A stretch of 63,990 nt of DNA, counting the filler, from Reclinomonas americana ATCC 50394 (Eukaryota): NCBI GenBank assembly GCA_048213135.1. It is 16 parts of 16 records of this genome, joined end to end, with 100 filler letters (N's around TTAATTAATTAA, not from the genome) between each part and the next. Parts side by side here need not be neighbours in the genome. Positions count along the whole stretch, not along the records: positions 22,734 to 26,558 come from AFZH01021709.1; positions 26,659 to 28,682 come from AFZH01021711.1; positions 28,783 to 35,168 come from AFZH01021713.1; 13 more parts are not named here. One strand, given 5' to 3'. The translations under genes were made by a program, and so were the position numbers. Below the pieces are notes generated by a model. That model saw only the letters and a list, made by a program, of their open reading frames with translations, ran no database searches and had not been told where the DNA came from. Positions 3,609-55,545 of this stretch are shown piece after piece (position 1 is the stretch's first letter; each line of letters starts with the position of its first letter).

Positions 3609-5806
3609 ATGTCGTGGGGTGAGTTGACGCTGTGGAACGCGCAAGACGCGTACTGTGATGGCATTGTGCGTGGCTACAAGGGCGGGCTGCTGTTTGAGCG
3701 TGACTATGAGAACCTGACGCAGGCGCCCAACCTCGAAGGTGCTGTATGTGTGTGTGTGAGAGAGAGAAGATGGGAGAGAGGGAGGAGGGAGGGAGGGAGC
3801 AGGAGAAGAGTGTATGTCTCTCTCTCTCTCTGCCTCTGTTCGTTCTCTCTCACTCAGCTCAAGAGCGTGTGTGTGTGCGTGTATGAGAGAGAGAGAGAGA
3901 GCACAGGAGGGAGCAGGAGAGAGCAGGAGAGAGAGCGTGCGCAACGGAATGCATGCATTCCTCTCTCTCCTCGTCCCTTCTGCCCTCCTCTCTCTCTCTC
4001 CTCGTCCCTTCTCGCCCTCGTCTCTCTCTATCTCCTCTCCCTCCTCTCTCTCTCCTCCTCTCTCTCTCTCTCTCTCGCGTGCTGTGTTGCAGTTGGATCC
4101 GTGTTGCACTGGCATGTTTGATCATCTCCTCTGCGCTCTCTCGTGCGCCTCGTGTCTCTATGTGTGTGTGTCTCGCGCGCGCTTAGTGCCGTGCTTGTGC
4201 AAGGCGCCTGTGCAGTGTATGGCAAGAGAGCAAGAGAGGCTTGGGCATGGGCATGGCCATGTCACTCACACACTCGCACGCACGCACGCAGACGTGCGCA
4301 TTCACTTGTCTGGCACCGACTATGGCACATTCTTGCAAGCGGAAGGCATGCTGGCGCCGTCCATTATTCGCGATCGCGCCATTGACACAATGGTCTTGTG
4401 TCATTTCTCTGATTGCTGTTGTCTCCTCCCTGGAGAGTGTCGCTCACTCGGCGGTGCTCAGGTCAAGGAGTTCAACTACCTGCGCGGCAATGCGGGGCAG
4501 ACACTGGATGCGTTCCTTGACTACATCCAGCACGGCTACATGATTGACAATGTGATTTTGATCCTCACCGGCACCATTCACGATCGGCGACTGGAGGAGT
4601 TGCTGACCAAGTGCCACCCGCTCGGTCTGTTCGAGTCGCTTGGCGCTGCCTCGCTGGCGCAGTCACCAGAGGAGCTGTATCACACTGTGCTCATCGACAC
4701 TCCTGTCGGCAAGTACTTCTCCAAGAAGTGCTTTGAGTTTGCCAGCTTGGCCGAGAGCAATCTGGAAGTTGCGCACACCGCCACTGCTCCCCGCGATGAG
4801 AAGGCGGGACGTGTTGTGGTGACAGTTTTTTGTGCGTGTGTTTGGCAGGTCATTCGCCAGCAGCTGTACAAGCACTACCTCGAGGACTTCTTCGATTTCT
4901 GCATGGACATTGGCGGCACCACTGCCGAGGTGATGCGCAAGATTCTCGAGTTCGAGGCCGACCGACGATCCATCAACATTACGGTGAGAGAGAGGGGGGA
5001 AGGGAGAAGGGCACACGTCATTGCTGCTTGCAACCTGAGAAAGACTCACACCTTGGTGAACAGTTGAATGCCTCCCAGACGGAGCTGCAAAAGGACGATC
5101 GGTGGGTGGCGCTCGAAATGTGCCGTTGTGCGAGATCATGAGCTGATCATACCGTGCTCCACGTGTGTGTTTGCGTGTGTGTGTGCAGGCAAGAGCTGTA
5201 CCCCACCATTGGTCTGCTGTACCCGTTCGGCCACCAGACGCTGTTGGACGATGTGCGTGACGAGGGCAGCTTGATGATTGCGCTGGACACGACGCTGGTG
5301 AGTGTGGGTGGGGAAGAGAGGAGCAAAGCAGAGCAGGGTGATACTGGGGGCGAGAGAGAGCCAAGAGGGTGTGTGAATGACTGGGGAGTGGTCGCAGAAG
5401 GTCGAGAGAATAGTCCAATAAGCGCCCACGTGGTTACTGATACCTGTGCTCTGTTTCTCTCTTCGACCCGCGCAGAAGGACTACCAGCACGTGCTGGCCA
5501 GCACACATGGCGTGGAGGGCGCAATCGAGGATGCGTTCACCCGCTACGAAATCCAGCTGCTGCAGGAGGCATTCGACCAACAGTTCCACTACGGAGTCTT
5601 CTACAGCTACTTCCGCCTGAAGGAGCAGGAGATCCGCAACATCACCCTCATTTGCGAGGTTTGTGGCTCACTCAGGTATCCCTTCCTCTGATATTCGCTC
5701 TCTCACCATCGGATTTTTCGATCCACACACACAGTGCATCCAGCAAGGAAACCGCGCCCGCATCCACAACTACATCAAGACGCAGGAGTTGGCTGGCAAG
5801 AAGTGA
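3609..5806 (+). CDS. ATP6V0D: V-type proton ATPase V0 subunit d, 8 exons
   Basis: Exons ~3609-3738, 4292-4392, 4462-4767, 4849-4983, 5064-5101, 5189-5297, 5476-5658 and 5735-5806 join in frame. Motifs: [82 protein letters not shown]. Confidence 0.96.
3745..4080. repeat. GA/CT microsatellite tracts inside V-ATPase intron 1
   Basis: (GA)n-rich tracts followed by complementary (CT)n-rich tracts. Confidence 0.85.
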
Positions 5807-6028: not shown

Positions 6029-6996
6029 TCACTGCGGAGGGCGGTACATGATGCTGGTGCCCTGGTGCGTCGTGAACCTCACGCCAGTGTTGTCCTCGAT
6101 GATGCGGCCCAGAGGGCGCGATGCCAGGTCACGCTCAAACTGCGTCAGCGATCCCGGCCACTCGTAGAAGAAGCGATCGCCGGCCTTCAGCATCGCAAAC
6201 TGCTGCACGAGGATCGCCCGGAACGTCTCGCCGACCATGCCACCGGCCACATGCGGCTCCGCCAGCCCGCCCACCCACAGATCCACCATCTCAATGTCGC
6301 CATTGTAGGCCGCCGCCAGCTGCGCCGCCACCACCACATCGCCGCCCGTAATGTCGGTGAAGAGTGCACGCGCAGGCAGGCCGAGGCGACGACGAGTCTG
6401 GTTGTAGGTGGTGAGGCCGTGGTCGCGACCGCGCTGAATGTTGAGGGCGGCCAGGTCGAGGCCACGCGCCAGGCCCGGCACGTGCTCAAACAGCATGTTG
6501 CGCACGCCGTCGGCAATGTGAATGTCGACCTCCTCGCTCGGGTAGTTGGCCAGGCCGCGCAGCACCGGATCCACGCCGTGCGTCAGGATCTCGGTGGCAT
6601 CGAAGAAGAAGTCGGCAAGCGACGGCTCACGCGGCTCCGGGTCCGCCTCGTCCATCAGCGGCAGCGCATCGCTCAGCATCGTGTGGCCGACGCGGTATGC
6701 CGCAGCCGCAAACTCGTTGCTGATGGTGGCATCGGCGTTGGAGTTGTATGCCTTGATCCTGTCGAACGGCGTGCAGTCGCCCAGCAGCACCGGCAGGAAC
6801 TCCTTGTAGGTGATGCGTTGCATCTCGGCGCCCACAATGCGACGAGCGCGCTGGTACACAATCTCGTCCTTTGTCACCGCGTCCGTCATGGCCGCCAGCT
6901 GCGCATCGTTACGCAAGATAATGTCGCACAGCTGGTTGTGTTCGCGCACAAACACCGTGTGCATGGCGGTGAGGCCGGACTGCTCGTTGACGCGAA
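6029..6996 (-). CDS. Heme peroxidase (peroxidase-cyclooxygenase / 'animal' heme peroxidase family), 5'-truncated by gap
   Basis: RVNE (distal Arg), MHTVFVREHN, EIVYQRARRIVGAEMQRITYKEFLP, NEFAAAAYRVGHT (proximal His), GLDLAALNIQRGRDHG, DLWVGGLAE, GDRFFYE. No introns over ~970 nt. Confidence 0.95.
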
Positions 6997-11805: not shown

Positions 11806-12423
11806 TGAGACAGTAACAACAAATACTGGAAATTACATGACATAAATCACAACAAACAAGACAAAAGATGATCGAACAAAAAACGAACTAACTTCAAAAA
11901 ACAAACAAATTAGCAAGCTACGCTCCGTCGCTGGCGCTTCCTCGCGGGTTTNNNNNNNNNNNNNNNNNNNNNNNNNNNNNNNNNNNNNNNNNNNNTTAAT
12001 TAATTAANNNNNNNNNNNNNNNNNNNNNNNNNNNNNNNNNNNNNNNNNNNNCAATGCGCATGCCGTGAATAACTTGTCCCGGCACCGCCTCACTTCGCGA
12101 ACCCACTTAGTTGTTTCAACACCGCCACGGTGGTCGCCAGAAAAAGCAAAGAAAATGACGGTCCGCCACGGGCCGCGAGAATCGGTGTGATGCGGCACCG
12201 CTACAAAGCCGTGGCGGGCTAGCCGGCTCGTTTTGGGTTCGAATTCGCGCGGCCCGCGCGCCGTACCGGCCCGCCTGCAGGCGGTACCCACCACTCTCCG
12301 CTCTACCTACCCCCTACTACCCCACCACCTCACTTTCCCCCACACAGGTTTCAACACGCAAGTTTCACTTACAACTCTGACTGTGCTCGCGCAAAGTCCG
12401 AGACACAATGCGCGCAGAGTACA

Positions 12424-14274: not shown

Positions 14275-14357
14275 CCGGACGTAGCTTAGACGGAAGAGCG
14301 TGGGACTGTAAACGTTCTGATATCCCAAGGTCGAGGGTTCAACTCCCTCCGGCCGGA
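14275..14357 (+). tRNA. trnY-GTA: tRNA-Tyr(GTA) with 10-nt canonical 37/38 intron
   Basis: CCGGACG-TA-GCTT-AGACGGAA-GAGC-G-TGGGA-CTGTAA[ACGTTCTGAT]A-TCCCA-AGGTC-GAGGG-TTCAACT-CCCTC-CGGCCGG-A. C1:G72 and A73 are eukaryotic Tyr identity elements. One acceptor-stem mismatch (A5:G68). Confidence 0.93.
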
Positions 14358-14358
14358 C

Positions 14359-22633: not shown

Positions 22634-22764
22634 NNNNNNNNNNNNNNNNNNNNNNNNNNNNNNNNNNNNNNNNNNNNTTAATTAATTAANNNNNNNNNNN
22701 NNNNNNNNNNNNNNNNNNNNNNNNNNNNNNNNNTGATCACCAACAACAACAACAACAAGTTTAC

Positions 22765-22982
22765 TAATCCAAACAGCAACACAGCTGCATGATGATCACC
22801 AGAAACTCAGACATCACGAAAAAAAGCGAGAAAAAGTCGAGATGGCTACAATGCTGCAGCTGGCGCGCGTTTCTGCAAGAGAAACCACGGCTCATGACAA
22901 ACAAGCAACGGCTGACTTGATGACCAAGTTCAACCGTATCCGAAACATCAACACAAACACCAATCTTGAGGCAGCAGGTTCC

Positions 22983-23023
<41 letters not shown>

Positions 23024-23060
23024 CGCTCTCGATCTCGGAGCTCTGAACAAGTCGAGAACT
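22765..23060 (+). repeat. Composite dispersed repeat A+B containing (GT)n
   Basis: Matches 11445-11570 (direct) followed by 12424-12548 (inverted). Confidence 0.85.
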
Positions 23061-23350
23061 GCGATCTTCACCGCATAAGCGTGGTTGACCAGTGGATTTG
23101 ATGCACTTGCATAGACGCATAGCGCTTTCTGCGATGGTACACCGCAGCAAGCAAAGTCTCTCGTTACACTGGCGACAATCATCACAACATCAATCATCGA
23201 CAGGTGAAAAGAATCGCAAGGGCAAGAGAAAAAGAGTGGCAAGAAAGAACGAAAGACTTGGCGCTGGTTGTTGTCAAAAAAAGGAGAAGTGAGGCAAACC
23301 AATGAGTCAATAATAAAAGGGCATTGGAAGACCCCCCCGAGTGGACCTCG

Positions 23351-26300
23351 TCAAGCGCACTTGGCGTCTGTGGCCGCAACACAGCCGAGACGCTGTCCGT
23401 TGCTCCAATTGAATGCCTGGTACGGAGTCGCGCCCTTGTTCAGCAACTGGCACGGGCCCTCGATGCGGCACTGGCAGTGCGTTCCAATGGCACCGGTGCT
23501 GGCATACGGCGCATACGGGTAGGTGCAGGAGCACACACTGCATTCACACAAGGTCGTGTAAGCATCAAGTGAAGCGGCTGTTTCGTCGAGCTATTCACGC
23601 AACTTGTTCGCGCATCGCCCGCCGACAAACAGGCCACCATTGTCAGCATGACCCACACCGTATCCCATGCACTGCGAGTCGCTGGTGCACACTGGCGGCG
23701 GTGCCACGACCGCGCACGTCGGACCACTGAATCCGCTCTTGCACACACAGCCGGTGCCAGTGCGACCTGTGGAGCACGATTGCGTGCCGGCGGCGTTGCA
23801 TGTCGAGCAGCTCTTGCTGCAGTCCGAGCCCCTGCGCCCCACACGGATGGTGATGAGAAACGGTGACACAGTACAGCACAGAGAAGCACAGAGCAGCACA
23901 GAAGAGCACAGGAGAGCACAATGCAGCACAGAGGAGCTCAGAACAGCACAAAGCAGCACAGTACATCGCAGCACAGAGCAGCACAGAACAGCACAGAGCA
24001 GCACAGAACAGCACAGAGCAGCACAGAACAGCACAGAGCAGCACAGCACAGAAGAGCACATAGCAGCACAGAAGAGCGCAGAAGAGCACATAACAACAAA
24101 ACACAGCAGAGACTAGAAGAGTTAAGTACAGCGGCAGAGCAGCACAGTACATCGCAGCACAGAGCAGCACAGCAGAACAGCAAAGCACAGCACAGAAAAG
24201 TACAGCACAGCAAAGCACAGAAGAGCACAGCACAGAAGAGCACAGCGCAGCAGAGAACAGCACAGTACATCGCAGCACAGAGCAGCATACACAAACACAC
24301 ACACACACACACACTCTCTCTCTCTCACTCCCACACAAACCAGCGATCTGGCGCACAGCTGTCGCACAAAGCCCCAGCAAAACCGGCCTTGCACACTGCG
24401 AAGAAACAAGAGTCACTTGTCAGTCCTCCGCATCACACCTTCTCCACCGCGCACACTCACCGCAACCACTGGCACTCGCACAGCTCGCCGTTCCAGCCGC
24501 CAGACACGACGTGCATGTCAGGCTGCAGTTGGTGCCAAAGTGCTGCGCGTCACACTGCGCACAGGTCGAGCCGGCGAAGGGCACGTAGCACGAGCACGAT
24601 CCGTCGTCCAGGAAGCACGAACCGTGACCGGAGCAGTCCTCCACCGGGCGGCACTGTTTCGGAGGAGAAGCAGTGAGCGATCGCGAACGGTGATCCAGGG
24701 AAGATGGTAAGTGGAGACAAAATGGCAGTTGAAAGACACTCCCACCAAGAAACAAAGAGAGAAAGGCTGCGCAACACGCCAACTCTCCACTCAGGCGAAT
24801 ACCCGCACAGAACAAAAATAAATAGGATCAACGGCGCACAATTCAGCCTATGGCCTTCGCCACCATCGCTTTCTCTCTCTCCACTCACCTGGCAGTTCTT
24901 GCCACCAATGCCGGGCAAGCACACACACTTGCCAGACGACTGGCCACTCGTCAACACGCAGTATCCACTCAGACTCGACTTGTTGCCAATTGTCACTGGC
25001 TGAGTTTGGCCTGCGCGCAGACATCATGAGGAACAGGTCAACCCAATCAGGTTTCACCAGGTCGCACACTCGTACCCCATCATACCCTTCCACCGATCTC
25101 TGATTTTTCATTTCTCTTGCTCGTCTACTATTACATTCGACAGCTTCAACTCATCCTCTTCCTCCCAGCGTCTACTGTCACTCATTCCTTCTCACTTACT
25201 CTCTCACTCTTCACACAGACATTCTTCAACGATTGCAGTTCCTGGTCCCTCTCTCCACAGTCACCTACCTTGCTTGATTCAGCAGACTACTTCATCTCAT
25301 CTCCACCATTCTCTCACTTTCCATTCTCGCAATCTCCCGTCTCTCCCTCTTCTTCCTCTTCATCCCAGCGTCTATTATAACTCGTCCCATCTCTCATACT
25401 CTCACACCCTTCACACAGACCCTCTCCACAGTCACCTATTTGCTTAATTCAACAATTACTCCATCCCATCTCCCCCTCATTCTCACTCTTCTCGCCGCTC
25501 ATCGTTGCAGCTCTTGGTTCTATTCCCTGTTTTGCTTGATTCAAAGCATCTTCATACACATACCACACACCTACTCTTTCTCCCTCCCTCTCTCCCCCTC
25601 CCCATTACTCATGCGCTTCTTCGACAGTCTGTTCTCGCCGCCTCACTCTTTGACACTCCTCACTCTCACGATCGCACTTTCTTTCTCTGTCACCATTCTT
25701 CCCCACCCCACTCCTTTCCCCCCTCCTCCTTCTCCTTTCCCCCTCTCACCATTGATGCTCAGGTGATTCCAGTTGCAGTGCATGTCCGTCACACAGAACC
25801 CATCTGCACGCAGAGTCAGTCACAATCATCCACCCTCAACACCCTCCCTTGCGCAACTCGTCGGATTGACACACGCCCCGTCTGCGTCGCGGCACGTCTC
25901 TGTGTTCTTGCATCCCGAGCACACGCTGCACGTGGGACCCGTCCAGTGGCCGGCGCACGATCCGCAATCCACACCGGTCCAGTGCGAGTTGCACTTGCAT
26001 GTGTTCTCGGCCTGGCACGCACCATGCAGGCACGAGCAGGCACTGCATTTGGGCTGAATGCGTGCTCCGAACGGAGTATTGGTGATACCCGCAAAGGCAA
26101 TGTTGTCGATGAGCCAGCCTATATCCCCGGACGCCTCGTCGCTTCCAATGCGGAAGCGGATTGCCACCGTCTTGCCTGCGCGCACACGTTTGAGCAGATG
26201 GAAAAACACGATCACGCCAGCGCACGCGTATCACATACCAGCGAAAGCCTGACCAAAGTCGAGCGTCTCTTGCAACTCATCGGGGTAAACAATGCCACCG

Positions 26301-28826
26301 TACGCTTCCCGGTTCGACAGCGGGTTACTTGCACCGACGTAAATCACGCCATCGTACGAAGGCTGCGCAGTATTAACAAGTCATGAGCGATTTGTTGCCA
26401 AAATGGACTAGTCACACACGGCTGTGTAGCATCCACGCGGCCGCAATTTTCTTCTTCTCCCGCCCTCGCTCTGCATCTCTCCCGTCCTCGCTCTCTCTGC
26501 ATCTTCCATTCTTCCTCTCTTCCTCTCGCTGTTGCCCTTCTCAGCCGACGCACTCACCNNNNNNNNNNNNNNNNNNNNNNNNNNNNNNNNNNNNNNNNNN
26601 NNTTAATTAATTAANNNNNNNNNNNNNNNNNNNNNNNNNNNNNNNNNNNNNNNNNNNNAGGGAGAGGGAGAGTGAGAGAGGGAGGGAGAGAGAGGGAGGG
26701 AGAGAGGTAGAGGGAGGGAGAGAGAGAGACAGACAGATACAAAGACTGAGACAGTGACAGAGACAGACAGATACAAAGACTGAGACAGTGACAGAGACAG
26801 ACAGACAGAGACAGACAGACAGAGAAAGAGACAGAGACAGAGACAGACAGACATACTAGACTGACTAACGGAGAGAGAAGGAGAAAGCAAGAGAGACAGC
26901 AAGATACAAAGATTGGAAAAGACAGAGACAGACGAGAGACAAAAGAGTAAGAGAAGACCGAGAGAGGGAGAGCGGGACAGGGAGACAGGGAGACAGAGAA
27001 CAGTAATAAAAGAGAGAGAGACCGAGAGAGAGAGAGAGATAAACAGACAGATAGACAAAAATTAACAAGAGAAACAGAGAGGGCGAGCAAACAGAAGTGA
27101 AGGGAATGCGAGGAGAGGGGGAGAGGGGTGGAACGATTTCTATCTGCTTCGTCCTACTTCTCCCATCCCTTCCCCTCTCGTTCCTCGCAGCTCACCTCAA
27201 ACATGGCAGTTGCCCAGATCTCGCCCGCATTGTGGACCTCCGAATTCGATGCACCGTTGCTCGCAATGGGGCCAATGGGCACCGGCGGGGTGAACTGGAA
27301 CGGCACGTTGTCGGAGATATACTTGAAGGTCAGCGGGTTCTTGCTCTTGTCGACCGAGTATGGGAGACGTCGGATGCCAAAGTACGCGTCATTGAGGGCG
27401 TAGATGGCGGTGGCATAGGTGCCGTCCAAATTATCGCCCTCACGCAGCACCTGATGAAGCGACACAAAGTCTCCGATGCCCTCCGACATGGAGGCACACT
27501 GGTTGCTGCTGCACTGCGCAAGTCGGTGATGGAGATAGTGGCCCCACTCGTGCATGCAGATCGTATCCAGCGTTCCAGCGTGCCGTTTCGACGACACCAA
27601 AGCGCCAGTCACGGTTCCGTTGCTGCCAATGTTGGCAACAAGTGCATCGCCATCCGACTTGCCGATCGACGCCGTTGGGATGGTCACAGATCCAGCCGGA
27701 AGCGATGCGTCCTTGCCCATATTGTTCACAGTATCAGCGGTATTGATGATCAGCACGCCGACGGCACCCGCTTGCTGGGCACGGAGAGCCTTGCTCTGGA
27801 AAGTGCATCCGCCTCGCCGGATCAGCGCGATTGCTCCAGTCACATTCTCCACAATGGCCGTGCACGCCAGCGGGTCGGCTGCCACCACCACAATCGGCGC
27901 AGACACCTATGTAGCGCGTAGCGCGTGAGAGTGGCATCGACAGGGGAAAACATGCAACTACAACGAACCGAAAACAAAACAGGACCAAAGGCCGCCGAGC
28001 CAATCGCGTACGACACACCGGGCGGCGTCACCACCAAGCGGCCAATCTCACCAGAGTCCCACAGGTACATTTGCATGCGTGGGCGCATGCCGTCAGATGG
28101 AGTCGACATGTTGGCGTTGTCCAAACCGCCGAAGTCCTGCGCCTCCGCCTTCATCGAGTCACCACCCACGCCACCACGACCGTAATTGTTATCCTGCGCA
28201 TTGCCGGCCGCCTCGTCGAACCCAGAGTCGTACCAGTAGTCGTGCAGATAGTTGGTGGTGTAAAACAGCTGCGTCACCTCGGCCAAGGTCTGGCTCTGCG
28301 ACGCCTGCGCATCCTTCGTCACGTCGTAGACGTAGTCGAACGTGTTTGGCGAAGTGGTGGCAGCGCGCAAATCGCCCGCACTGAATCCGTCGGGTGACGC
28401 CAGGTCGGCGTACGCATCCACATTGTTACCGCGCGTCTCGGTGGCACCCGACGGCAGCCACGGGTCGTTAAACTTGTTGAACGAGTCCATTGACACCAGC
28501 GACGGCGGCACAAAAGCCGGGAACAGGCCGTCCGGCATGCCAGTGGGGTGCGGAGTCCAGTCCTCCGTGGGGCCGTCGGCCGGCACCTTGTCGCCGTCGG
28601 TGCGCGCCCACACGCGGTAGTCGAAAGTCTCATTGACGGTGAGGTTGGCCGACTCGAGCACGGTCCACGAGTCGCTAGCGATNNNNNNNNNNNNNNNNNN
28701 NNNNNNNNNNNNNNNNNNNNNNNNNNTTAATTAATTAANNNNNNNNNNNNNNNNNNNNNNNNNNNNNNNNNNNNNNNNNNNNTTTCAACAGACAACAGTG
28801 GATTGCTGGTCCACCGCTCGCTGAGC

Positions 28827-28864
<38 letters not shown>

Positions 28865-30469
28865 GAGCAGAGAGAGCGAGAGACAGAGCAAGGCACAGTC
28901 ACATAAGAGAGAGAAAACAGTGGATTGCTGACACGCCGATCATTGAGATCTTGAGCACAGAGAATATGTGAGAGAGAGTGAGAGAGTTAGAGGGAGAGAG
29001 GGAGAGTGAGGAGCAAGAAACGGTTACACGCGAGACAACAGTGGTCTGGAGAGGCACTGGTGAGTGAGTGAGTGAGAGATGGGAATGTGAGTGCGTACGG
29101 GAGGGAGGGTGGAGAGAGAGAGAGAGCGCGCGCGAGAGCGAGAGAGAGAGAGAGAGTGAGGGTGCAGAGCGAGTACACACAAGAGAACAGGGATTGGTGA
29201 AGCACCAGCGAAGGAGAGAGCAACAGGAGAGAGCAGGCTCAAGGAGTACCGGGGGAGAGACAGAGAGTGAGGAGCAAGGCAAGTACACACAAGAGAACAG
29301 GGATTGGTGAAGAGACGAGCACTTCCCCATCTGCACACCTTCCTCACGCGACTGCCGTGCGGGCTGCGCACAGAGACCGCCGCGCCCTCACTTGTGAACA
29401 ACCACACATCGCTGTGGAGGCCGTGACGCGTGAATTCCTCCACGTGCACGTCGTCGACGCTGACGGCATTGTCGGCGCCGAAGTGAGCGTTCAGCGCAGC
29501 GACCAGCGCCTGCTTGTACTGTCCGACGTCGGCGGGCACCGCGAAGGCGCCATCGACAGACGAGGAGGCGACGTGGTGCTCGGAGGCGGGCGTGAAGGAG
29601 GCAACGTCAACCAGCGACCCAGTGGCCGACAGCAACTGGAACGAGGTCGGGTGGAGCAACAAGCGAACTTCGCTGTTCAACACCTCCACTCCGTGGACCG
29701 ACTGGCGGACGTGTGCGGCCGCGACGCGCCCACCGTGCAGCGACGAGACTACACGAGCCACATGCAGGGAGACGGAGGCGGACTCGGCTGCGGGGAGGCG
29801 GGAAGGAGAAGAGAGAGTAAAGAGTGAGCATACATCGGACACGCATCGGAAAAACTGTGTGTGCCATGACCCTGATAGAAACCACGCAAGGCCGCACGCC
29901 GTGGTGGTATACCAGTGATCGTCATGGACAAGAAGAAAGAGCGAAGCGGAGAGAGCAGCAAGAAACAATGCAAGTCCGACATGCATGATTCGTGATGCTG
30001 AAAAAACAGGACACGGAAAAACGCTTCTCCCACTCTCTCGCTCTCTTGCTCTCTGCACCACTCACCAGCAGGTGTCGCTTGCACTCCAAAGCTGCGCTGA
30101 TGGCGAGTGCGAGTCGAAGACGCGGCGGACATTTCCGCACTCACAAGGCGACGCACGTGAAACAGCGCCGCATCCTCCACCGTGCGCACACTCGCAGGCA
30201 GCACGTCGTGGTGCGCCGACGAAGAATGAGAAGAGGAGGGAGTGGCGTGGAACGAGAGGTGAATGCGCGAGGAGGGTGTGCGGTTCCCCTGTGCGTCCCC
30301 AGCGGGACATACATGAGTCGTGATGCACGCTCATGTCAGGCAACAAACACACACGCACCGAGGGAGAGAAAGTGTCGCGGGAGAGGGCACTCGCAGCAGG
30401 CACAGTGAGTGCACCCACGGAGAGGACCAGCGCCACAAAGGCGGCGAAATGCAGGATGTTCGAGTGCAT
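23351..30469 (-). CDS. Secreted M36 (fungalysin) zinc metallopeptidase: signal peptide, FTP-like propeptide, PA insert, C-terminal beta-sandwich and EGF/laminin-EGF-like repeats; spans two gaps
   Basis: Signal peptide MHSNILHFAAFVALVLSVGALT; propeptide HVRQSVHGVEVLNSEV; DYRVWA...NDPWLPSGATETRGNNVDAYAD; LFYTTNYLHDYWYDSGFDEAAGNAQ; NANMSTPSDGMRPRMQMYLW; PA motif IALIRRGGCTF; HEWGH; SMSEGIGDF; GIRRLPYS; EVHNAGEIWA; RFRIGSDEASGDIGWLIDNIAFAGITNTPF. Cys-rich exons follow to TGA at 23351. Confidence 0.92.
23866..24290. repeat. Degenerate pentamer satellite (CACAG/AGCAG/AACAG) in an M36 intron
   Basis: Direct observation; it generates spurious long Cys/Leu ORFs. Confidence 0.9.
26659..27130. repeat. 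GA/GACA low-complexity intronic tract
   Basis: Direct observation. Similar tracts at 25100-25745 (pyrimidine-rich) and 28825-29320. Confidence 0.9.
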
Positions 30470-31331
30470 CGCGATTCCGCTGCACATATGCATTCGCGTG
30501 GCGAGCGAGTGAGCGAGTGATGGGAAGAGGGGAGAGTGAGACAGAGAGAGCGTGTGTGTTTGTCTGTGCTCACCGGGATGCAGAAATGACGAAGTGAAAG
30601 CGTGGATAAAGTTTTTCCGAAGAGCGCAGGTTGTTCGAATCGTCGCAGCGAGAGCACCAAGGTTGTGTCGATTCCCGATGGCGCTTTGCCAGTGCATGCC
30701 TGAGCTCGCATTGCCGTCACAGAAATGAACGCTTGTTGAATGCGCGTGGATTTTCGTCAGCAGCCTCGCCCTCTCGTCAACGCAGCAAGTGTATCACGTG
30801 TTCGATGTCTGAGTTTCTGGTGCCCAACTCACGATTATGTAGCTGTGTTGTTGTTTGCGTAAGCAAGTTTGTTGCTGCTGATGTTGAATCGGTGCTGCAG
30901 GGGTCTCGTCGGTGATTAGCATTCTGTCAGTTGCAGAGAGAGAGCGAGTCGTCGCCTGCCGAGCCTATGAGTGAGTGCTCACGCGGAAGCTCACCAGCTA
31001 CAATGATGCACGCGAAGACGAACGGTCCCGCGTTGTGTTGGCCACCCTTATCAGCCGTCAGCCAACACGCGGCTTGAAGACTGAATCGTGGAAGACGACA
31101 GTGAACAAACTGTCCCCGTGTTCTTGCTCACGCTCCTGATCTCTGTCGTGCACCTGGAGTTCATCGTCCTGTGCTTCACAAGAGGGATCGCTGACATTCT
31201 GTTTATCTACAGCACACAACGACAACAACGAAGGAGACGCAGCAGTGACAACCACCACAACACCGTATCGAAGTAAATAGAAAGAAAAAACGCTCACACA
31301 ACACTTTCTCACAAACTCACTCATGTCGAGC

Positions 31332-34300
31332 TCAAACCGAGCCAGTGGTCTCCACTCCATCATCACCTGCGTGTTAAACACGCGGTCAGACCGCGCCAGT
31401 CAACCGCGCATACATCACACGACTTGACAAAACGCAACTCTTGAACCACTGCTCCACGAACTGCACCAGCTCCTCATTCTCGCGGCTCCGCGCGAATTCG
31501 ATGACGTTGTCGCGATTCTGTCGTGCCACCTTGGCAGCGAACGCAGAGTGTGCCAGCACGACCTTGATACACGGAAGACTCGCCGCCTCCAGAGAAGCTC
31601 CGAGAATGGGATGCATCTTGGCCTCGGCATCGGCACGGTAGTCCAACACGGCCGCTCCACTTGGCGCCAGTCGCACCAGCAGCTCCAGCACCTCGGCACG
31701 ACCATGCTCGGCCGCCACATACGACGGCGGGTGCTCGTGGCCTTGTCGCACGGCTGGCATCTCCAGAACAGCTGCGCCGCTTGGGCAGTGCTTGGCCAGC
31801 ACCTCCAGTACGCCGACATGACCGTCCTTGGCAGCGTGGTGAACCACGTAGTATCCCTTTCGATCGCCGACGGGCAACTCGAGACTGCCCGCAACGGATG
31901 GGAATCGCTCGAGCACAAATTCCAGGGTCGCCACACCACCACCCATCGCCGCCGCGTGCGCTGGCGTCACTCCGTCCTCGACCGTAGCCGCCAGGATGGC
32001 CGCACCACGAGGCGCATGCTCCACTAAGTACTCGAGCAGCACCGCATGGTTACTGGCGGCAGCCACATGCGCCGGTGTCGACGACTCGTGCGCAGTCTGC
32101 AGCACTTCGGTTCCGGCATCGGCAACAATCGCCCGCACTGCGTCCAGGTCGCCAGATGCGCACGCCTCCATCACCTGGTGCACGAACAGAGGTGAGCGCG
32201 GAGTGACATCCTTTCTCGCACGTTGTGTGGTTCTCTCACCTTGCCCATGCTCTCCAGCACCTTCTCGTTGATGGGATTGGCCGCCAGCGCCTCCTCAATG
32301 TACTGGACCATGTCGTTCAACTTGTCATCCTTGGCCATCTTCAGAGCGTCAAAGTTGCTGGTCTTGAGGACGCTGGTACCACATTTCTCCACAATAAACG
32401 CCAGTTCTGGGGTGCTGCCGGTGGTGACAGCGCAGTACGCCGGCGAGCGGCCTTGCGGAGTCAGCGAGAGTAGGGCACCCGCTCCGGCCGGCGAGTGCTC
32501 CACAATGAACTCGAGAACTGCGACGCCACCCTCCGATGCCGCCGCATGAGCAGGAGTGAATCCCATGATGTTGCGCGAAGTGCTGAGATCCTTGAGGCAT
32601 TGCGGAGAAGTGTGCACCAGATACTCGAGTATGTCCACTCGCCCGTGCAGGCAAGCCAGGTAGGGGAGTGTGTAGCCGCTGTAGTCGCGCTTCTCCAACA
32701 GCGCTGCACCACTCGGCGAATGCGCCACGAGAAACTCCAGTGCGGGTAACTGGCCAAACTTGACCGCGGCAAACGCCGGCGTGCGGTCCGAGTATCCGAC
32801 CAGATCGAGTGCAGCCAGTCCCTCTCCATCCGGCATGTTCTCAACGAGGTACTCCAGTACTGCCACCTGGCCGCGAGCTACTGCAGCGAACACTGGGTGG
32901 CTGTGCTCATCGGAACTGTCGCCGCGACTGGCAAACGACAGAATCTCCGGTCCAAATTGACCCACGATCCGCTTGAGAGCGTGGAGCGCGCCATCGTTGC
33001 ACGCCCTCACAATCTGGGCGAGGAGCGCAGCAGTGAGCGATGAAAAGGCTTCAAACAGTGATTGCAAACTTCTGCTGCATGCATGCACACCATGTCACGA
33101 TAGGCGCGCAGAATATCGCCCCTGAGCTCCTCGTCAGGCGTTTCTGTGTGAAACACAAAAAGGGTTGCGAGGTGAGCATCCCATGCTCACGCCCGCATCG
33201 ATGGCACACGCAGACTCACCCTCTGGCACTGCAATATCAGCCGCCTTGAGCGCATCCTGGAGGTATGCCACCGCCGCCTCTTTCTTGCACAACCGAGCCA
33301 CCGCCAGCGCATCGCGGCCAGGGACATGCTTCATCGTCGATGCCACCGTAAAGGCCCGGGCACCAGAGGGAGCGGTGGCCGCCACAAACTTCAGCACGTT
33401 CACGTGGCCCCCCTGTGCAGCCCAATGCGCTGCCGTCCATCCGTCCGCGTCTTCGCATTCCAGGCTTGCCGCACCGAGTGACGACTTACTCACGAGCCAC
33501 TGCACAATGTCCAAGTGGCCGTTCGCACTGGCCGCGTGCATCGCCGTCGACTTGTCGCAGCTCGCAACATCCACGCCCATTGCTGGGCATTGGGCGAGGA
33601 CGAACTGCAGCACCGGCAAGTGGCCGTTCGCAGCAGCGACGTGCACAGTCCGAGTGCCGTTGAACGAGGGCACGGCCAGCACGGCAGCACTCGACTTGGC
33701 CACCAAGTACGACAGCACCTCCACGTGGCCATGAGCGGCAGCGGCGAGCGCTGGCGTCCACCCCATGTAGTCTTTGCAGACGAGGATCAGACTTCCCGCC
33801 TCCGCAACCAGTGCCTCCACGGCTGGCAGGTCGCCGGCGCTGCAGGCTTGCAGCATCTGCCGATTGTCACCACCGGCGTGAGCGACCAATCCGCTGCACA
33901 ACGCAATAGACGCATGCACGCACAGCACGCACCTTGCTCTTGTTATTCTTCCAGTTCTTCTGCGCTGGCGTCGCCACCGCCGTCATTTGCAGCCGCTCCA
34001 GCAACGCAACGGCCTCGGCCCGGCAGCACAGACGCGCAAGTCTCAATGGTGTGGTACCCGTCGAGTTCCTGGCTGCCAGTTGAGCGGCACCGGCCGGCCC
34101 ACGGGCCAGCAGGAACTCGATCATCGCCGTGTCGCCGCGTTCTGCAGCGTTGTGCAGTGCCATGGCTTCCGAGTACCTCTCCAGACTGACGACAGTGTCA
34201 AGCAGCGCCTCGTGACTGGGCGCCTTGTCGACAATGAGCTCCACCACCGGCAGCACACCTTTCTGCACCGCCTGCACAACGGCACGCGTGTCTTCGTACG

Positions 34301-36449
34301 GCACTTCAAACTGCACGGCACCGAGTGGCGATCGCGCCGCCAGCAACTCCATCACGGCCAGGTGACCCATGCGGACGGCCAGTCCCATGGCCGTGAGGCC
34401 CGACTCGGGATTCGCTGCTTCGAGTGCGGCGCCGCCGGCCTTGGATGCGATCACCTCGAGCACATCAACAAAGCCCTTCTCGGCGGCAATGTGCACGGGA
34501 CTGTTCAAGTATGCGTTGCGGACCTCGAGAAGGGCGCCGCGCGAAGGGGCATGCTCCACCAAGAAGGACAGTACGTCGGCCTTGCCCAGCTGGCACGCCA
34601 TAAACGCCGTGGTCACGCCCTCGGTGGTGCGAATCTCCAGCAGTGCACCTCCGCTCGGCGCATTGGCCACCAAGTACTCCAGCATAGGCAGACTGCTCTT
34701 GCGGGTGGCCATCATGGCCAGCGTGCTTCGCGTCTTGTCAAAGGCCTCCAGAACAGCAGGGCCGCGGGGAGCGTAGCGGACAATCGTCTGCAGAACCGAA
34801 AGCTGGTCGGCGGCGGCGGCGGTCAATGCGGGCGTCATGCGGTTGCGGTCCGGCACCTCCAGCGTGGCCGCAGCGGTGGGATACTCTTGCAACACTGCCT
34901 CCAGCAGGTGGCCGTGTCCTCTCTCGATCATGCGCAGGAGGAGAGTGCGACCGCACCCGTCGCAGATGGGGATCATGCGGTGGCCACCTTCTAGGTTGAG
35001 GATGGCGCGGGCGTCGTCCAGGTTGCCCGTGTCGAAGGCGGTCCACAGCTGAGGAGAATGTGAGGGAAAGGGTGAGGGAGAAGGTGCAGGGGAAGGGAAA
35101 GGGAAAGGGAGAGGGAGAGGGAGAGGGAGAGGGAGAGGGAGAGGAGAGGAGAGGAGAGGAGAGAGAGGNNNNNNNNNNNNNNNNNNNNNNNNNNNNNNNN
35201 NNNNNNNNNNNNTTAATTAATTAANNNNNNNNNNNNNNNNNNNNNNNNNNNNNNNNNNNNNNNNNNNNGGAGAGGAGAGGAGAGGAGAGGAGAGGAGAGG
35301 AGAGGAGAGGAGAAAAGAAGGGGAAGAGAAGTGGAAGAGAAAGGGAAGAGAACGGGAAGAGGGAAAGGAGGGAAAGGGGGGTGGGAAGGGAGAGGGAGAG
35401 GGAGAGGGAGAGGGAGAGGGAGAGGGAGAGGGAGAGGGAGAGGGAGAGGGAGAGGGAGAGGGAAAAGGAGAGGGAGAGGGGAGAGGGAGAGGAGGAGAAG
35501 AAAAAGCACAAAAGAAAGCAAGAAAGCAAGGAAGCAAGTGAGCAAGTGAGCAAGGAAGCAAGGAAGCAAGAAAGGAGGAAAGGAGGAAAGCAAGAAAGAA
35601 AGAGAGCAACAAATGAAAGAAGAGAGAAAGAGAGCAAGAAAGAAAGCAAGCAAGCATGCAAGCAAGCAAGCAGCAAGAAAGAAAGAAGAGAGAAAGAGAG
35701 AAAGAGAGAAAGAGAGAAAGAAGAGGGAAAGATAAAGCTCGCGAGAAAGGCAAATGAGAAGACAGAGAGAAAGACAGAGAGACAAAGAGAGAGTGAGAGA
35801 CAAAGAGCGCACCTTCGAAAAGTGCGTGGTAACAAACTCGATGTATTCGGCGGCAACATCGTGGTTGTTGGCCTTGGCCAAGGCGAGGCAGTCCAAATCG
35901 GCCATGCCCTTCTTCGTCAGCACACACCACCCATTGGGGGCGTGCGAGACAAGGTACTCCAACACATCCACACGGCCCGTCGCAGACGCCTTGTGCGCCG
36001 GCATGTCGCCATCACTGTGCACCGTGTTCAGCACGCCAGAGCCCGACGGCGAATTCTCCACCAGAAACTCGAGCACGTGCAGGTGGCCGTTGCCCGCTGC
36101 CAGGGCAGCAATGTTGGCGGGGTCGCGACGATTGGGGCGGAAAATCTCCTCCTCGAACGGATGGCGCTTCACCAGCACCTCCAGCACGTTGATGTGGCCG
36201 TGGAGGGCGGCCAGCGCCTGGCCCGTGTGGCCTCGCTCGTCGACGCTGAACACCAGCGTCTCGTCCACGTTGGTGAGCAACTCATTCAGCTGGTCCGTGT
36301 TGCCGCTGGCACAGGCGTGCAGGAATGCGGCCTGATAGATCAATGAGACGGGGGATGTGGCGGAGAGAGTGTCAGGGAGGGCGGTTCTGTCTCACCGACG
36401 GGGTTTCTTCGTGGCGGGGGGCGTCAGTGGGCGTGGATCCGGAGGACAT
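31332..36449 (-). CDS. Large ankyrin-repeat protein of five ankyrin modules (~1400 aa, 8 exons)
   Basis: Predicted exons 36449-36396, 36331-35813, 35048-33933, 33856-33220, ~33143-33091, ~33013-32240, 32174-~31440 and ~31366-31332 have compatible phases. Repeated TPAHxAAxxGxxxVLExLV motifs with SPSGAALLE-type linkers. Confidence 0.85.
35055..35805. repeat. GAGAG / GGGAGA / AAGC simple repeats in ankyrin intron
   Basis: Direct observation on both sides of the gap. Confidence 0.9.
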
Positions 36450-38631: not shown

Positions 38632-39784
38632 TCAGCACCGAAAAAGGACGACCTCGGCATCCTCGACGATAAAGCAGCGCAGAACCAGTTCGGGAAGGCA
38701 TCGAGAATCTACCTCTTCCTCCTGCATCTCCTGCACCGCTCGCAGGGCCGAGCGAGCGGCGTCGAGTTCGAGACGAGCGAGGCCACGCGGCGTGCACCAC
38801 ACTCGCACGGTCTCGTCGTGGCCACCGACGCTCACAATGTGCTGACCATCGGGAGAGACGGCCGCACACGACACCCATTCTGTGTGTCCCTCCAACCGTC
38901 GCTCTTCCTCGCCACTCGCCAGAGACCACATCCGCACTGTGTTGTCCCCGCTCCCGCTCACGATGTGCTGACTGTCGGGAGTGATGGCGACAGAATGTAC
39001 CGCATGGGCGTGTCCGTCCAACTGTCGCATTAGCTGTCCACTTGCCAGTGACCACACTCGCAGGGTGCGGTCCGCACTGCCACTAACAATGTGCTGACCG
39101 TCTGGAGTGACAGCGACAGAGTATACCGTGTCAGTGTGTCCCTCCAACCGTCTTACTTCTTCCCCGCTCGTCAGCAACCACACCCGCACTGTCTTGTCTT
39201 CACCCCCACTCACCACATGCTGACCATCGGGAGTGACTGTGACACAATACACCACTCCAGTGCCTCCTTCCAACCGTCGCACCTCCTTCCCACTCATCAA
39301 CGACCACACACGCACTGTCTCGTCGAAGCCGCCGCTGAAAATAAGCTGACAATCAGGGGTGACGGCGACAGAGTTCACCGTGCTGGTGTGTCCCTCCAGC
39401 CGTCGCACTTCTTCTCCACTCGCCAGCGACCACACACGTACGGTACAGTCTCCACCTCCACTCACGATGTGCTGACCATCGGGGGTGACGGCGACATAAT
39501 ACACAACGAAAGTGTGGCCTTCCAGTCGTCGCACTTCCTCCCCGCTCGCCAGAGACCACACTCGAATAATTCCGTCCACACACCCACCGACAATGTGCTT
39601 GCCGTCGGGAGTGACGGTGACGAATCGCACCATATCGAGACTCTGAATGATCTGTGCCACTCGCAGTGAGACGCACATGCACAAACACACAAACGACAAC
39701 CACACACATGCACAAGCACACGAATGCACGCACAGACACCAAACGCGCAAAAGCGCGCACACACATTCCCACCTTTGTTGTCAT
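38632..39784 (-). CDS. 7-blade WD40 protein, array unit 1 (intact)
   Basis: Exon 1 MTTK (39784-39773), exon 2 from 39651 IIQSLDMVRF..., seven ~42-aa repeats, tail TPRGLARLELDAA...LPELVLRCFIVEDAEVVLFRC. Confidence 0.92.
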
Positions 39785-45144: not shown

Positions 45145-46315
45145 TCAGCACCGGAAAAGGACGACCTCGGTATCCTCGACGATGAAACAACGCAGAACCA
45201 GCTCGGGAAGGCATCGTGAATCTACTTGTTCCTCCTGCATCTCCTGCACGGCGTGCATGGCCCAGCGCGCGGCGTCGAGTTCGAAGCCAGCAAGGCCACG
45301 CGGAGACGACCGCACTCGTATCGTCTTGTCTTGGCCACCCGCGCTCACAGTGTGCTGACCGTCGGAAGAGACGGCGACACATTACACCCATCCGTCATGT
45401 CCCTCCAACCGTAACACTTCCTCTCCACTCTCCAGAGACCACACTCGCACTGTGCAGTCCCCACCCCCACTCACGACATGTTGGCCATCGGGAGTGACGG
45501 CGACAGACCACACATATCCTGTGTGTCCCTCCAATCGTCGCACTTCTTCTCCACTCGCCAGCATCCATACACGCACAGTCTTGTCTTCACCGCCACTCAC
45601 TATGTGCTTGCTGTCGGGAGTGACAGCGACAGAGAGCACCACTCCAATGTGCCCCTCCAACCGTCGCACCTCCTCCCCACTCGCCAGCAACCACACTCGC
45701 ACTGTGTTGTCTCCACCGCCGCTAACAATGTGCTGACCCTCAGGAGTGACGACGACAGACCAAATCTCGTCAGTATGTCCCTCCAGCCGTCGCACTTCCT
45801 CCCCACTCGCCAGAGACCACACTCGCACTGTGTTGTCGAAGCTGCCACTCACGATAAACTGACCATCGGGGGTGACGGCGACAGTAGCCACAGTGTCGGT
45901 GTGCCCCTCCAGCCGTCGCACCTCGTCGCCACTCGCCAGAGACCACACCCGTACAGTGCTTCCACTTCCGCTCACGATGTGCTCGCCATCGAGGGTGATG
46001 GCAACAGAGTAAACAGCATCAGCGTGTCCTTTCAACAGAAGCACTTCTTTTCCACTCACAAGAGACCACACTCGAACGGTACTGTCCTCACACCCACCAA
46101 CAATGTGCTTGCCATCGGGCGTGACGGCGACCGACTGCACCGCAGAAGCGAGATTCTGAATGATCTGTGTCGATCATTCGCGGTGAGACACACACACAGC
46201 AGCAACTCAAACAACAATCCACAAACGGCAACCGCACACGATACACAAGCACACGAATGAACGTACAGACACCAACCACGCAAAAGTGCGCATACATTCA
46301 CACCTTAGTTGTCAT
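45145..46315 (-). pseudogene. WD40 array unit 2 with an in-frame TAA in blade 7
   Basis: MTTK|IIQNLASAVQSV...; GGA TGG GTG TAA TGT GTC at ~45382-45384. The frame continues to the normal tail. Confidence 0.88.
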
Positions 46316-48290: not shown

Positions 48291-49449
48291 TCAGCACCGA
48301 AAAAGGAAGACCTCGGCATCCTCGACGATAAAGCAGCGCAGAACCAGCTCGGGAAGACACAGTGAATCTACTTCATCCTCCTGCATCTCCTGCACAGCCT
48401 GCATGGCCAAGCGCGCGTCATCGAGCTCGACGCGAGCAAGGCCACGCGGTGTGGACCACACTCGCACGGTCTTATCCTTGCCACCCGCACTCACAATATG
48501 CTGACCATCGGAAGAGACGGCCACAGACGACACCCATCCCTCATGTCCCTCCAACCGTCGCACCTCCTTTCCACTCGCCAGAGACCATACCCGCACTGTC
48601 TTGTCCTCGCTCCCACTCACGACATGCTGGCCATCGGAGGTGACAGTGACAGACGACACCCAGTCAGTGTGTCCGTCCAGCCGTCGCACCTCCTCACCAC
48701 TTGCCAGTGACCACACCCACACTGCGTGCTCACAGCCACTCACGATGTGCTGACCATCGTAAGTGACGGCAACAGAGTACACCCATTCAGTATGTCCCTC
48801 CAACCGTCGCACCTCCTCCCCGCTCGCCAGCAACCACACCCGCACGGTGTTGTCGAAACTGCCGCTCACTACGTGCCGACCGTCGGGGGTGACGACGACA
48901 GACAACACCCTTCCAGTGTGTCCCACCATCCGTCGCACCTCCTCGCCACTCGCCAGTGACCACACTCTCACAGTGTTGTCGCTGCTGCCGCTCACGATGT
49001 GATGACCATCAGGCGTGACGGCGACAGATATCACCTCATCGGAGTGACCCTCCAGTCGTCGAACCTCTTCTCCACTCGCCAGCGACCACACACGCACGGT
49101 ACAGTCTCCACACCCACTCACGATGTGCTGATTATCAGGGGCGACAGCGACAGATTGCACCCATTCAGTGTGTCCATCCAGCCGTAGCACCTCCTTGCCA
49201 CTCGCCAGAGACCACATTCGAACGGTGCTGTCCATGCATCCACCAACAATGTGCTTGCTATCGGGCGTGACGGCGACGGATCGTACCACGGAAGTGAGAC
49301 TCTGAATGATCTGCGTCGATCACTCGCGGTGAGACGCACATGCACACACAAGCACAAACAACAACCGCACACAAGCACAAGCACACCAATGCATGCACAG
49401 ACACCAACCACGCAAAAAAGTGCGCACACATTCACACCTTTGTTGTCAT
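48291..49449 (-). CDS. 7-blade WD40 protein, array unit 3 (intact)
   Basis: MTTK|IIQSLTSVVRSV..., seven repeats, conserved tail. Confidence 0.92.
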
Positions 49450-54367: not shown

Positions 54368-55545
54368 TCAGCACCGGAAAAGGACGACCTCGGCATCCTC
54401 GGCGATGAAACAACGCAGAACCAGCTCGGGAAGGCATCGTGAATCTCGTTCCTCCTCCTGCATCTCCTGTACGGCGTGCATGGCCGAGCGCGCGGCGTCG
54501 AGTTCGAAGGCAGCAAGGCCACGCGGCGTGGACCACACTCGCACGGTCTCGTCTTGACCACCCGCACTCACAATATGCTGACCGTCAGGAGAGACGGCCA
54601 CAGACGACACCCATCCAGTGTGTCCCTCTAACCGCCGCACTTCCTCGCCACTCTCCAGAGACCACATCCGCACAGTCTTGTCTCCACTCCCACTCACAAT
54701 ATGCTGACTGTCGGGAGTGATGGCGACAGAATTTACTGCATGGGTGTGTCCGTCCAACTGTCGCATTAGCTGTCCACTTGCCAGTGACCACACTCTCACC
54801 ATTCTGTCCCTACAGCCACTCACGACGTGCTGACCGTCTGGAGTAACAGCGACAGAGTACACCCAGTCAGTGTGTCCATCCAACTGTCGAACCTCCTCCC
54901 CACTCGCCAGAGACCACAACCGCACTGTGTTGTCTCCACCGCCACTCACGACATGCTGGCCATCAGGGGTGACGGCGACACAATACACCCATCCAGTGTG
55001 TCCCACCAGCGGTCGCACCTCCATCCCACTCATCAACGACCACACCCGGATGATGCTGCCTCCACCGCCGCTCACGATGTGCTGGCCATCAGGCGAGATG
55101 GCGACAGACATTACAAAGCTAGTGTGTCCCTCCAACCGTCGCACCTCCTCCCTACTCACTAGCGACCACACACGCACTGTCTTGTCTCCACACGCACTGA
55201 GAATGCACTTACTATCGGGGGTGACGGCAACCGAGTACGCAATGTGAGTGTGTCCCTCCAGCCGTCGCACCTCTTTGCCACTCGCCAGTGACCACACTCG
55301 AACGGTGCCGTCCTCACACCCACCAACAATGTGCTTGCCATCGAGAGTGACGGCGACGGATCGCACTACTGCGAGACTCTGAATGATCTGTGCCGATCAT
55401 TCGCGGTGAGACGCACACGCTCAGCAACATTCGAAGACACGCACACAGAGCAACGCGAACATCAACCGCACATACACAAGCATAAGAATGCACGCACAGA
55501 CACCAGCCACGCAAAGTGCGCACACATTCCCACCTTTGTTGCCAT
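54368..55545 (-). CDS. 7-blade WD40 protein, array unit 5 (intact)
   Basis: MATK|IIQSLAVVRSV..., seven repeats, conserved tail. Confidence 0.92.

Follow-up and report, generated by a model that had tools for sequence, protein, structure and literature searches.

The closest described relatives of the gene considered here, an M36 metallopeptidase gene on the minus strand of a 63,990-base stretch of the Reclinomonas americana ATCC 50394 assembly (GCA_048213135.1; the whole stretch that was analysed is hereafter called the window), are the myxosortase-dependent M36 proteins of Myxococcota (NCBIfam model NF038112), such as those of Minicystis rosea (P0011) and Polyangium mundeleinium (P0080). These proteins have the same pro-region, the same PA insert before the HEWGH motif and the same ...GITNTPF end; they are 55–63% identical to the window gene over the exon that we call B and are colinear with it over about 1170 bacterial residues. 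By contrast, the window gene is encoded by a eukaryote, has spliceosomal introns and lacks the PKD-type domain and the MYXO-CTERM signal, carrying instead a cysteine-rich tail that resembles epidermal growth factor (EGF) modules. Fungal fungalysins (MEROPS M36; Aspergillus Mep, PDB 4k90, 7z6t and 7qfy) share the Pfam domain PF02128 and the HExxH motif with downstream Glu and His motifs, but have neither the PA insert nor the long C-terminal extension and are much more distant. Rhombosortase-dependent (NF038111) and type IX secretion system (T9SS)-dependent (NF038113) M36 proteins have the same M36 and PA layout and match the same pieces of the gene, scoring 244.4 and 149.6 bits on exon B compared with 326.6 bits for NF038112; their sorting signals are not expected in the window gene.

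Bacterium-to-protist transfers in which introns were later gained and domains shuffled are well documented. A search of literature listings on fungalysin, M36 and myxosortase gave no report of a myxosortase-type M36 peptidase in a non-fungal eukaryote, and the main text of the myxosortase preprint does not mention M36. We consider it likely that the window holds a nuclear, intron-bearing gene of a GC-rich eukaryote that derives from a bacterial PA-domain M36 gene of the myxosortase-dependent family, most likely a Polyangia-like one, and that has since gained introns and acquired an EGF-like tail in place of the PKD and MYXO-CTERM end.

An M36 peptidase of the myxosortase-dependent type

The gene is spread over three contigs (22734-26558, 26659-28682 and 28783-35168) of the 16 that make up the window, with an identical 100-nt spacer (44 N, TTAATTAATTAA, 44 N) at each of the 15 joins. 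Peptidase_M36 (PF02128) matched exon B with an expectation value (E) of 8.7e-39 (134.2 bits) and exon C at E 4.4e-17 (62.8 bits), and the PA domain (PF02225) matched residues 2-89 of the exon C open reading frame (ORF), upstream of HEWGH, at E 4.2e-19 (68.9 bits). These scores lie far above the curated Pfam gathering cut-offs of 23.3 bits for PF02128 and 23.9 bits for PF02225, which excludes chance matches. The PA insert occupies the same position as in P0011, P0002 and P0080.

The motifs quoted in the original prediction (TPHPTGMPDG, NDPWLPSGATETRGNNVDAYADL, PA before HEWGH, and GKTVAIRFRIGSDE...GWLIDNIAFAGITNTPF) were all recovered on the minus strand, with TPHPTGMPDG and NDPWLPSGATETRGNNVDAYADL inside exon B and GKTVAIRFRIGSDE...GWLIDNIAFAGITNTPF lying across the junction of exons D and E. 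HEWGH, SEGIGDF and NSEVHNAGE are intact, and in an alignment with the Aspergillus Mep structures they fall on the zinc-site region. We take the HExxH zinc site, the downstream Glu (..EGxGDF) and the His (..VHxxGExWA) to have the roles assigned to these residues in fungalysins.

NF038112 was the top NCBIfam M36 subfamily model on four of the five pieces scanned, above NF038111 and NF038113 on each, with 326.6 bits on exon B (profile positions 275-510), 193.4 bits on exon C (529-768), 17.8 bits on exon D (1093-1139) and 45.4 bits on exon E (1139-1187). The sole NCBIfam match of the remaining, 5' piece (exon 3) was a weak one to NF038111 (E 8.2e-4). Together the pieces of this incompletely assembled gene reach about 583 bits, short of the NF038112 whole-protein cut-off of 1500 bits, which three Polyangiaceae homologues (1300-1375 bits) do not reach either. 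Among 83 columns conserved in at least 95% of 81 bacterial rows, the window retains 78 (94%); for the bacterial rows the median is 98.8% and the minimum 83.5%. As these columns are largely kept and the active-site motifs are present, the gene is probably functional.

Exon–intron structure

Exon ends were set by eye on the sequence and then verified by script, which gave the following features:

30359..30469, minus strand: tentative exon 1, an ATG and a hydrophobic, signal-peptide-like start (read by eye); open, with a GT donor
30145..30288, minus strand: tentative exon 2, upstream pro-region; bounded by AG and GT, in phase
29392..29782, minus strand: exon 3, pro-region homologous to part of the bacterial N-terminal propeptide; GTGAGG donor, acceptor alternatively at 29787
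28783..29391, minus strand: CT-rich intron sequence to the contig end, as read from the sequence
28683..28782, no strand: spacer between contigs; about 40 homologue residues missing (bacterial residues roughly 231-271)
27981..28682, minus strand: exon B, which covers the N-terminal half of the M36 catalytic domain and is cut by the start of the contig
27907..27980, minus strand: 74-nt GT..AG intron between exons B and C, with a frame change
27196..27906, minus strand: exon C, PA insert followed by HEWGH, SEGIGDF and NSEVHNAGE (Pfam, NCBIfam)
26659..27195, minus strand: intron sequence with CT and GTCT microsatellites, to the contig end, as read from the sequence
26559..26658, no strand: spacer between contigs; about 330 residues missing (bacterial residues roughly 757-1087)
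26363..26558, minus strand: remainder of an intron; the contig starts with donor-like GGTGAGT
26239..26362, minus strand: exon D, part of the beta-sandwich-type domain at the C-terminus of the bacterial family (NF038112 positions 1093-1139)
25843..26175, minus strand: exon E, bacterial-homologous end (to GITNTPF) and first EGF-like modules (NF038112 positions 1139-1187)
25750..25803, minus strand: exon F (optional), after a 39-nt intron; GT..AG, frame
24889..25010, minus strand: exon G, Cys-containing; GT..AG, no Pfam match
24461..24653, minus strand: exon H, EGF-like modules; sub-threshold Pfam matches
24341..24395, minus strand: exon I, EGF-like; GT..AG, frame
23591..23831, minus strand: exon J, ending at TAG 23593-23591; frame, EGF_2 at E 0.04

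The spliceosomal introns proposed in the original prediction are borne out by GT..AG ends, by a change of frame and by an in-frame stop. The reading frame differs between exons B and C, which can be joined only by removing the 74-nt intron; this yields 471 open codons. The 63-nt intron between exons D and E holds an in-frame TGA. Against each of the four bacterial queries, tblastn shows this intron as an insertion of 21 codons, and once it is removed the sequence is again colinear with the bacterial proteins. All 10 exon ends placed in contigs 1 and 2 are of the GT..AG type, mostly G/GTGAG and GCGCAG/G (the slash marks the exon boundary), and CT-rich introns resembling those of the host are present. 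Exons D to J join into one open frame of 373 codons that stops at TAG, with introns of 63, 39, 739, 235, 65 and 509 nt. Exon F and its 39-nt intron are doubtful because skipping the exon also preserves the frame. At the second join, the contig opens with GGTGAGT, so the preceding exon seems to end exactly at the contig edge.

Towards the 5' end, exon 3 matched positions 102-230 of a hidden Markov model (HMM) built from 85 bacterial N-termini (E 3.4e-7), and exon 2 gave a colinear, non-significant match to positions 76-96 of the bacterial N-termini (E about 0.5). A guessed intron at 29912-29788 was dropped because it breaks the frame. The intron that follows the pro-region exon contains two copies of a motif of about 30 nt (CTTCACCAATCCCTGTTCTCTTGTGTGTAC; 29170-29310, minus strand), with related 'CAATCCACTGTT' pieces recurring close to the end of the contig.

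Four bacterial homologues used as tblastn queries each gave three matches in the window, those of P0011 covering residues 272-524, 534-756 and 1088-1168. The pieces of the gene, corresponding to bacterial residues of about 100-230, 272-756 and 1088-1168, are colinear, and tblastn with the bacterial homologues found no second M36 copy within the window. Because the pieces do not overlap, follow the right order and share one strand, taking the three contigs as parts of a single gene, as in the original prediction, is the economical reading, although it is unproven. A search of public sequencing runs listed no RNA run; five runs shared 5–6% of the sequence words, and four of these matched only at the intron microsatellite (26863-27066) and at scattered positions of low depth, leaving the exons unmatched.

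A cysteine-rich tail in place of the sorting signal

In three Polyangiaceae homologues, the shared ...GITNTPF is followed by a PKD-type domain at about 1181-1269 and then by MYXO-CTERM at about 1281-1311. In exon E of the window, ...GITNTPF passes directly into Cys-rich sequence within the same exon, and the tail that begins there has 45 Cys in 297 residues, recurrently spaced. Neither MYXO-CTERM (TIGR03901) nor any other NCBIfam model matched the four tail pieces, which included both candidate last exons, at E up to 1. The Cys spacing is of the same kind as in the EGF, laminin-EGF and MEGF/PEAR1-type repeats of eukaryotic extracellular proteins (CxC..G[WF]xGxxCxxC), from which the tail differs in that its scores fall below the cut-offs. 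Three tail exons matched EGF_PEAR1L, EGF_2, EGF_Teneurin, EGF_laminin, EGF and DSL at E 4e-4 to 0.05. EGF_PEAR1L on exon E was the best of these (E 4e-4), scoring 20.9 bits where the cut-off is 37.5; EGF_2 reached 18.1 bits against 22.1, and DSL, EGF_2, EGF_Teneurin, EGF_laminin and EGF matched exon H at E 0.002-0.02, likewise under their cut-offs.

A search with the junction exon for an M36–EGF fusion elsewhere matched 10 of 66 candidates, all on the M36 part only, and yielded no homologue of the tail; nor were paralogues of the tail found elsewhere within the window. Some myxobacterial M36 proteins have other, unrelated Cys-rich repeats at the same junction, which indicates that it is a point of shuffling in bacteria too. 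Homology of the tail to Cys-rich parts of bacterial M36 proteins was considered and rejected, as the best match (E 1.6e-5 in a 268-sequence database) had 25% identity and was driven by cysteines. A eukaryotic origin of the EGF-like modules is likely but unproven. The original prediction had Cys-rich EGF and laminin-EGF-like exons replacing the bacterial anchoring end. Its Cys-rich tail and the absence of PKD and MYXO-CTERM stand; the EGF assignment takes the form of sub-threshold Pfam matches, and the eukaryotic source of the modules is not established.

Nearest relatives and phylogenetic position

Searching a 5.8-billion-protein collection with exon B matched 3414 of 5312 candidates. The best 120 are 55–63% identical to the query, and none is eukaryote-labelled or from EukProt. 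An NCBI organism name is attached to 17 of the 120: 16 are Myxococcota (among them Minicystis, Polyangium, Sorangium, Byssovorax, Kofleriaceae and Myxococcaceae) and one is a 'Nanopelagicales' metagenome-assembled genome. A HMMER scan of 1.84 billion representatives returned 4840 matches, the best 150 being 49–63% identical. In species-representative genomes, verification upheld 517 of the 564 stretches; by title, the best 80 of these 517 loci comprise 66 Myxococcota, 6 'Deltaproteobacteria' and 8 others (Eisenbacteria, Acidobacteriota, Proteobacteria and unclassified). Metagenome contigs contributed nothing nearer (best 80 of 258 loci, 49–63% identical). Fungal M36 structures scored 72–78.5 bits, about a quarter of the roughly 290–300 bits of Myxococcota proteins. 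With NF038112 best on most pieces, named relatives in Myxococcota and low fungal scores, the gene belongs, as the original prediction had it, with myxosortase-dependent M36 peptidases and not with fungalysins.

For phylogenetic analysis, 89 loci supplied the homologous counterpart of exons B and C. After two without a usable match pair and three duplicates had been dropped, the alignment held 84 rows and the window, with three PA-less paralogues of one Acidobacteriota genome as the outgroup. In the LG+C20 tree of these 85 rows, the window falls inside a clade of 52 rows that comprises Polyangiaceae, Kofleriaceae, Nannocystaceae and related groups, with a stem of 0.24 and a value of 100 in the Shimodaira–Hasegawa-like approximate likelihood-ratio test (SH-aLRT); its sister, with weak support (84), consists of four uncultured Polyangiaceae-like rows. 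In a hand-picked subset of 50 rows, the window lies inside a 30-row clade (SH-aLRT 100) and a 25-row clade (95), and under LG+F+G4 with 1000 ultrafast bootstraps (UFBoot) a clade of 32 of the 50 rows that contains the window received UFBoot 100.

A Myxococcota-type bacterial origin of the gene is therefore well supported. A donor within Polyangia is the best estimate and only that, because approximately unbiased (AU) tests leave placements outside Polyangia, and outside the bacterial ingroup, unrejected. Of the horizontal transfer from a predatory bacterium put forward in the original prediction, the Myxococcota-type origin has held up and the donor is not established; a maximum-likelihood phylogeny, which it suggested as a check and which here covered bacterial rows, nests the window in a Polyangia-dominated clade of bacterial rows, with an outside position not excluded by the AU test.

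A possible homologue in a second eukaryote

The representative search also yielded P0122, a 273-residue ORF on a 2536-nt contig. Its top match among 269 sequences is exon B of the window, at 56% identity, whereas the best of the bacterial rows listed reach no more than 53%, and it is the sole protein of the set that has the window among its top three matches. P0122 and the window are sisters with SH-aLRT values of 99 (LG+G4) and 97 (LG+C20). The ORF ends 11 residues past FGP, where the window has the intron between exons B and C, and its residue make-up seems AT-richer. The two have seven rare residues in common (control maximum 6), one of them an A at a column where 50 of the 53 other ingroup rows have P. 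The sister position of P0122 and the proximity of its end to the window's intron site raise the possibility that a second eukaryote has the gene too, and P0122 may be a lead to it in another intron-bearing genome, perhaps an exon of an orthologue. Tentatively, and with more doubt than confidence, we suggest that one old myxobacterial transfer could have founded a small family of secreted M36–EGF proteases. This family would be present in two or more eukaryotes that diverged deeply, would have an intron at the same position or close to it, and would have been re-targeted from a lipid anchor to a disulfide-rich extracellular module.

Alternative explanations

Several observations weigh against the proposed origin of the gene. 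The two joins together leave about 370 residues of the gene unassembled, and both ends of the model are tentative: an alternative start ATG lies at 29986 within the same long ORF, and at the 3' end a weak 60-nt intron (23637-23578) would join 23831-23638 to 23577-23351, replacing the TAG at 23591 with a TGA at 23353-23351. The ends given in the original prediction, 30469 (ATG with the signal-peptide-like start) and 23351 (TGA), are both defensible and neither is proven. All EGF-type Pfam matches of the tail are under their gathering cut-offs. A position of the window outside all sampled PA-type bacterial rows was not rejected by the AU test (p 0.12, log-likelihood difference 25.8, with the constrained search stopped at 135 s), nor was it with P0122 added and the searches finished (p 0.19, difference 21.5), and a position outside the Polyangia clade was not rejected either (p 0.61). 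The trees comprised bacterial rows, the window and, in some, P0122, and a wider eukaryotic clade is compatible with them. In a language-model Atlas, the nearest look-alikes are three eukaryote-labelled clusters of M36 fragments (0.92–0.94), a similarity that comes without an alignment. Finally, the G+C content at third codon positions is 72–83% in the window exons, 63–78% in host ORFs and 76–80% in the nearest uncultured Polyangiaceae loci; since it fits host and donor-like loci alike, composition does not discriminate between them and is silent on the age of a transfer.

Some of these points would also follow if the window gene belonged to an older eukaryotic clade of PA-type M36 peptidases present in several lineages, through one ancient transfer or, less likely, vertical descent. 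The eukaryote labels of the Atlas look-alikes and the unrejected placement outside the bacterial ingroup agree with such a clade, as do the best match of P0122 to exon B, its grouping with the window in both trees, the end of its ORF near the window's intron site and the shared rare A. However, P0122 is known here from protein sequence alone, its excess of shared rare residues is small (seven against a control maximum of six), and the two are long branches that may attract each other; moreover, the best 120 relatives include none labelled as eukaryotic or drawn from EukProt, and the maximum-likelihood trees place the pair within the bacterial clade. We regard an older eukaryotic clade as rather unlikely.

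The remaining alternatives concern the integrity of the locus. The three contigs could represent different paralogues or a decaying pseudogene and so no single functional gene, given two unassembled joins, a gene model known from the DNA only, and deviations at five of the 83 strongly conserved columns, among them a change of W to I in SEGWGDF. The pieces are nonetheless colinear, non-overlapping and in one orientation, the window has no second copy, the exons are all open with canonical splice sites and intact active-site motifs, and the 94% of conserved columns kept is within the bacterial range (minimum 83.5%), which makes this explanation improbable. Bacterial contamination or a chimeric assembly would account for the bacterial affinity of the nearest relatives, but the bacterial-homologous coding sequence is itself split by GT..AG introns, one shifting the frame and one containing a stop; exon E alone joins the bacterial-type part to the EGF-like sequence, and identity to any bacterium is at most 63%. 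We give this possibility almost no weight.

Proposed origin and function

The M36 gene of the window is thus a real gene that was probably acquired by horizontal transfer and then received introns and a new tail. In the sequence of events that we propose, a bacterial PA-type M36 gene would have been transferred, most likely from a Polyangia-like myxobacterium, and would have gained spliceosomal introns afterwards. The PKD and MYXO-CTERM surface-anchoring end would have been lost, with about 300 residues of Cys-rich, EGF-like modules taking its place. The product is predicted to be a pro-enzyme that carries a signal peptide for secretion and a pro-region that inhibits it; it may mature to an extracellular or lysosomal zinc endopeptidase whose location or binding would be set by the disulfide-rich tail and not by a lipid anchor. 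Prey digestion is a possible role.

The homology, introns, intact active-site motifs and different C-terminus are observed features. The locus is a clean case, open to checking, in which the gene for an extracellular protease of bacteria has turned eukaryotic, with introns splitting the bacterial coding sequence and a single exon running from the bacterial part into eukaryote-style, EGF-like modules at the position of the former prokaryotic sorting signal. It illustrates how a transferred secreted enzyme may be re-addressed in a recipient without the sorting machinery of the donor. This is a new architecture within a known type of event, a fairly ordinary transfer from bacterium to eukaryote, and no new kind of biology.

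Other features of the window

At least four ankyrin-repeat ORFs (31386-36391, minus strand) lie directly upstream of the M36 gene, on the contig that carries its 5' exons, which agrees with integration of the gene into a eukaryotic genome; translation of (CT)n-rich spacers gives pseudo-ORFs rich in Leu, Ser and Pro. The stretch 4450-4986 (plus strand) contains exons of V-ATPase subunit d. Their best named relative, from a chytrid, is 60% identical, followed by a mixture of fungi and Amoebozoa, and so low a best identity suggests that the host lineage is poorly sampled. Rfam and tRNA scans of the window gave only a tRNA-Leu(TAA) gene (14275-14358, plus strand), on which Rfam and ARAGORN agree, and one doubtful tRNA with a four-base anticodon, found by ARAGORN alone (12169-12257, plus strand). 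An ORF at 6029-6996 (minus strand), cut by a contig end, resembles an animal-type haem peroxidase as judged by eye. Five long WD40-repeat ORFs, all on the minus strand, are distributed over several contigs (38632-39780, 45382-46173, 48291-49319, 54368-55396 and 59112-60143). Four of them have a near-identical C-terminal stretch ending ...CLPELVLRCFI.EDAEV.LFRC, and the set resembles a dispersed or tandem gene family.

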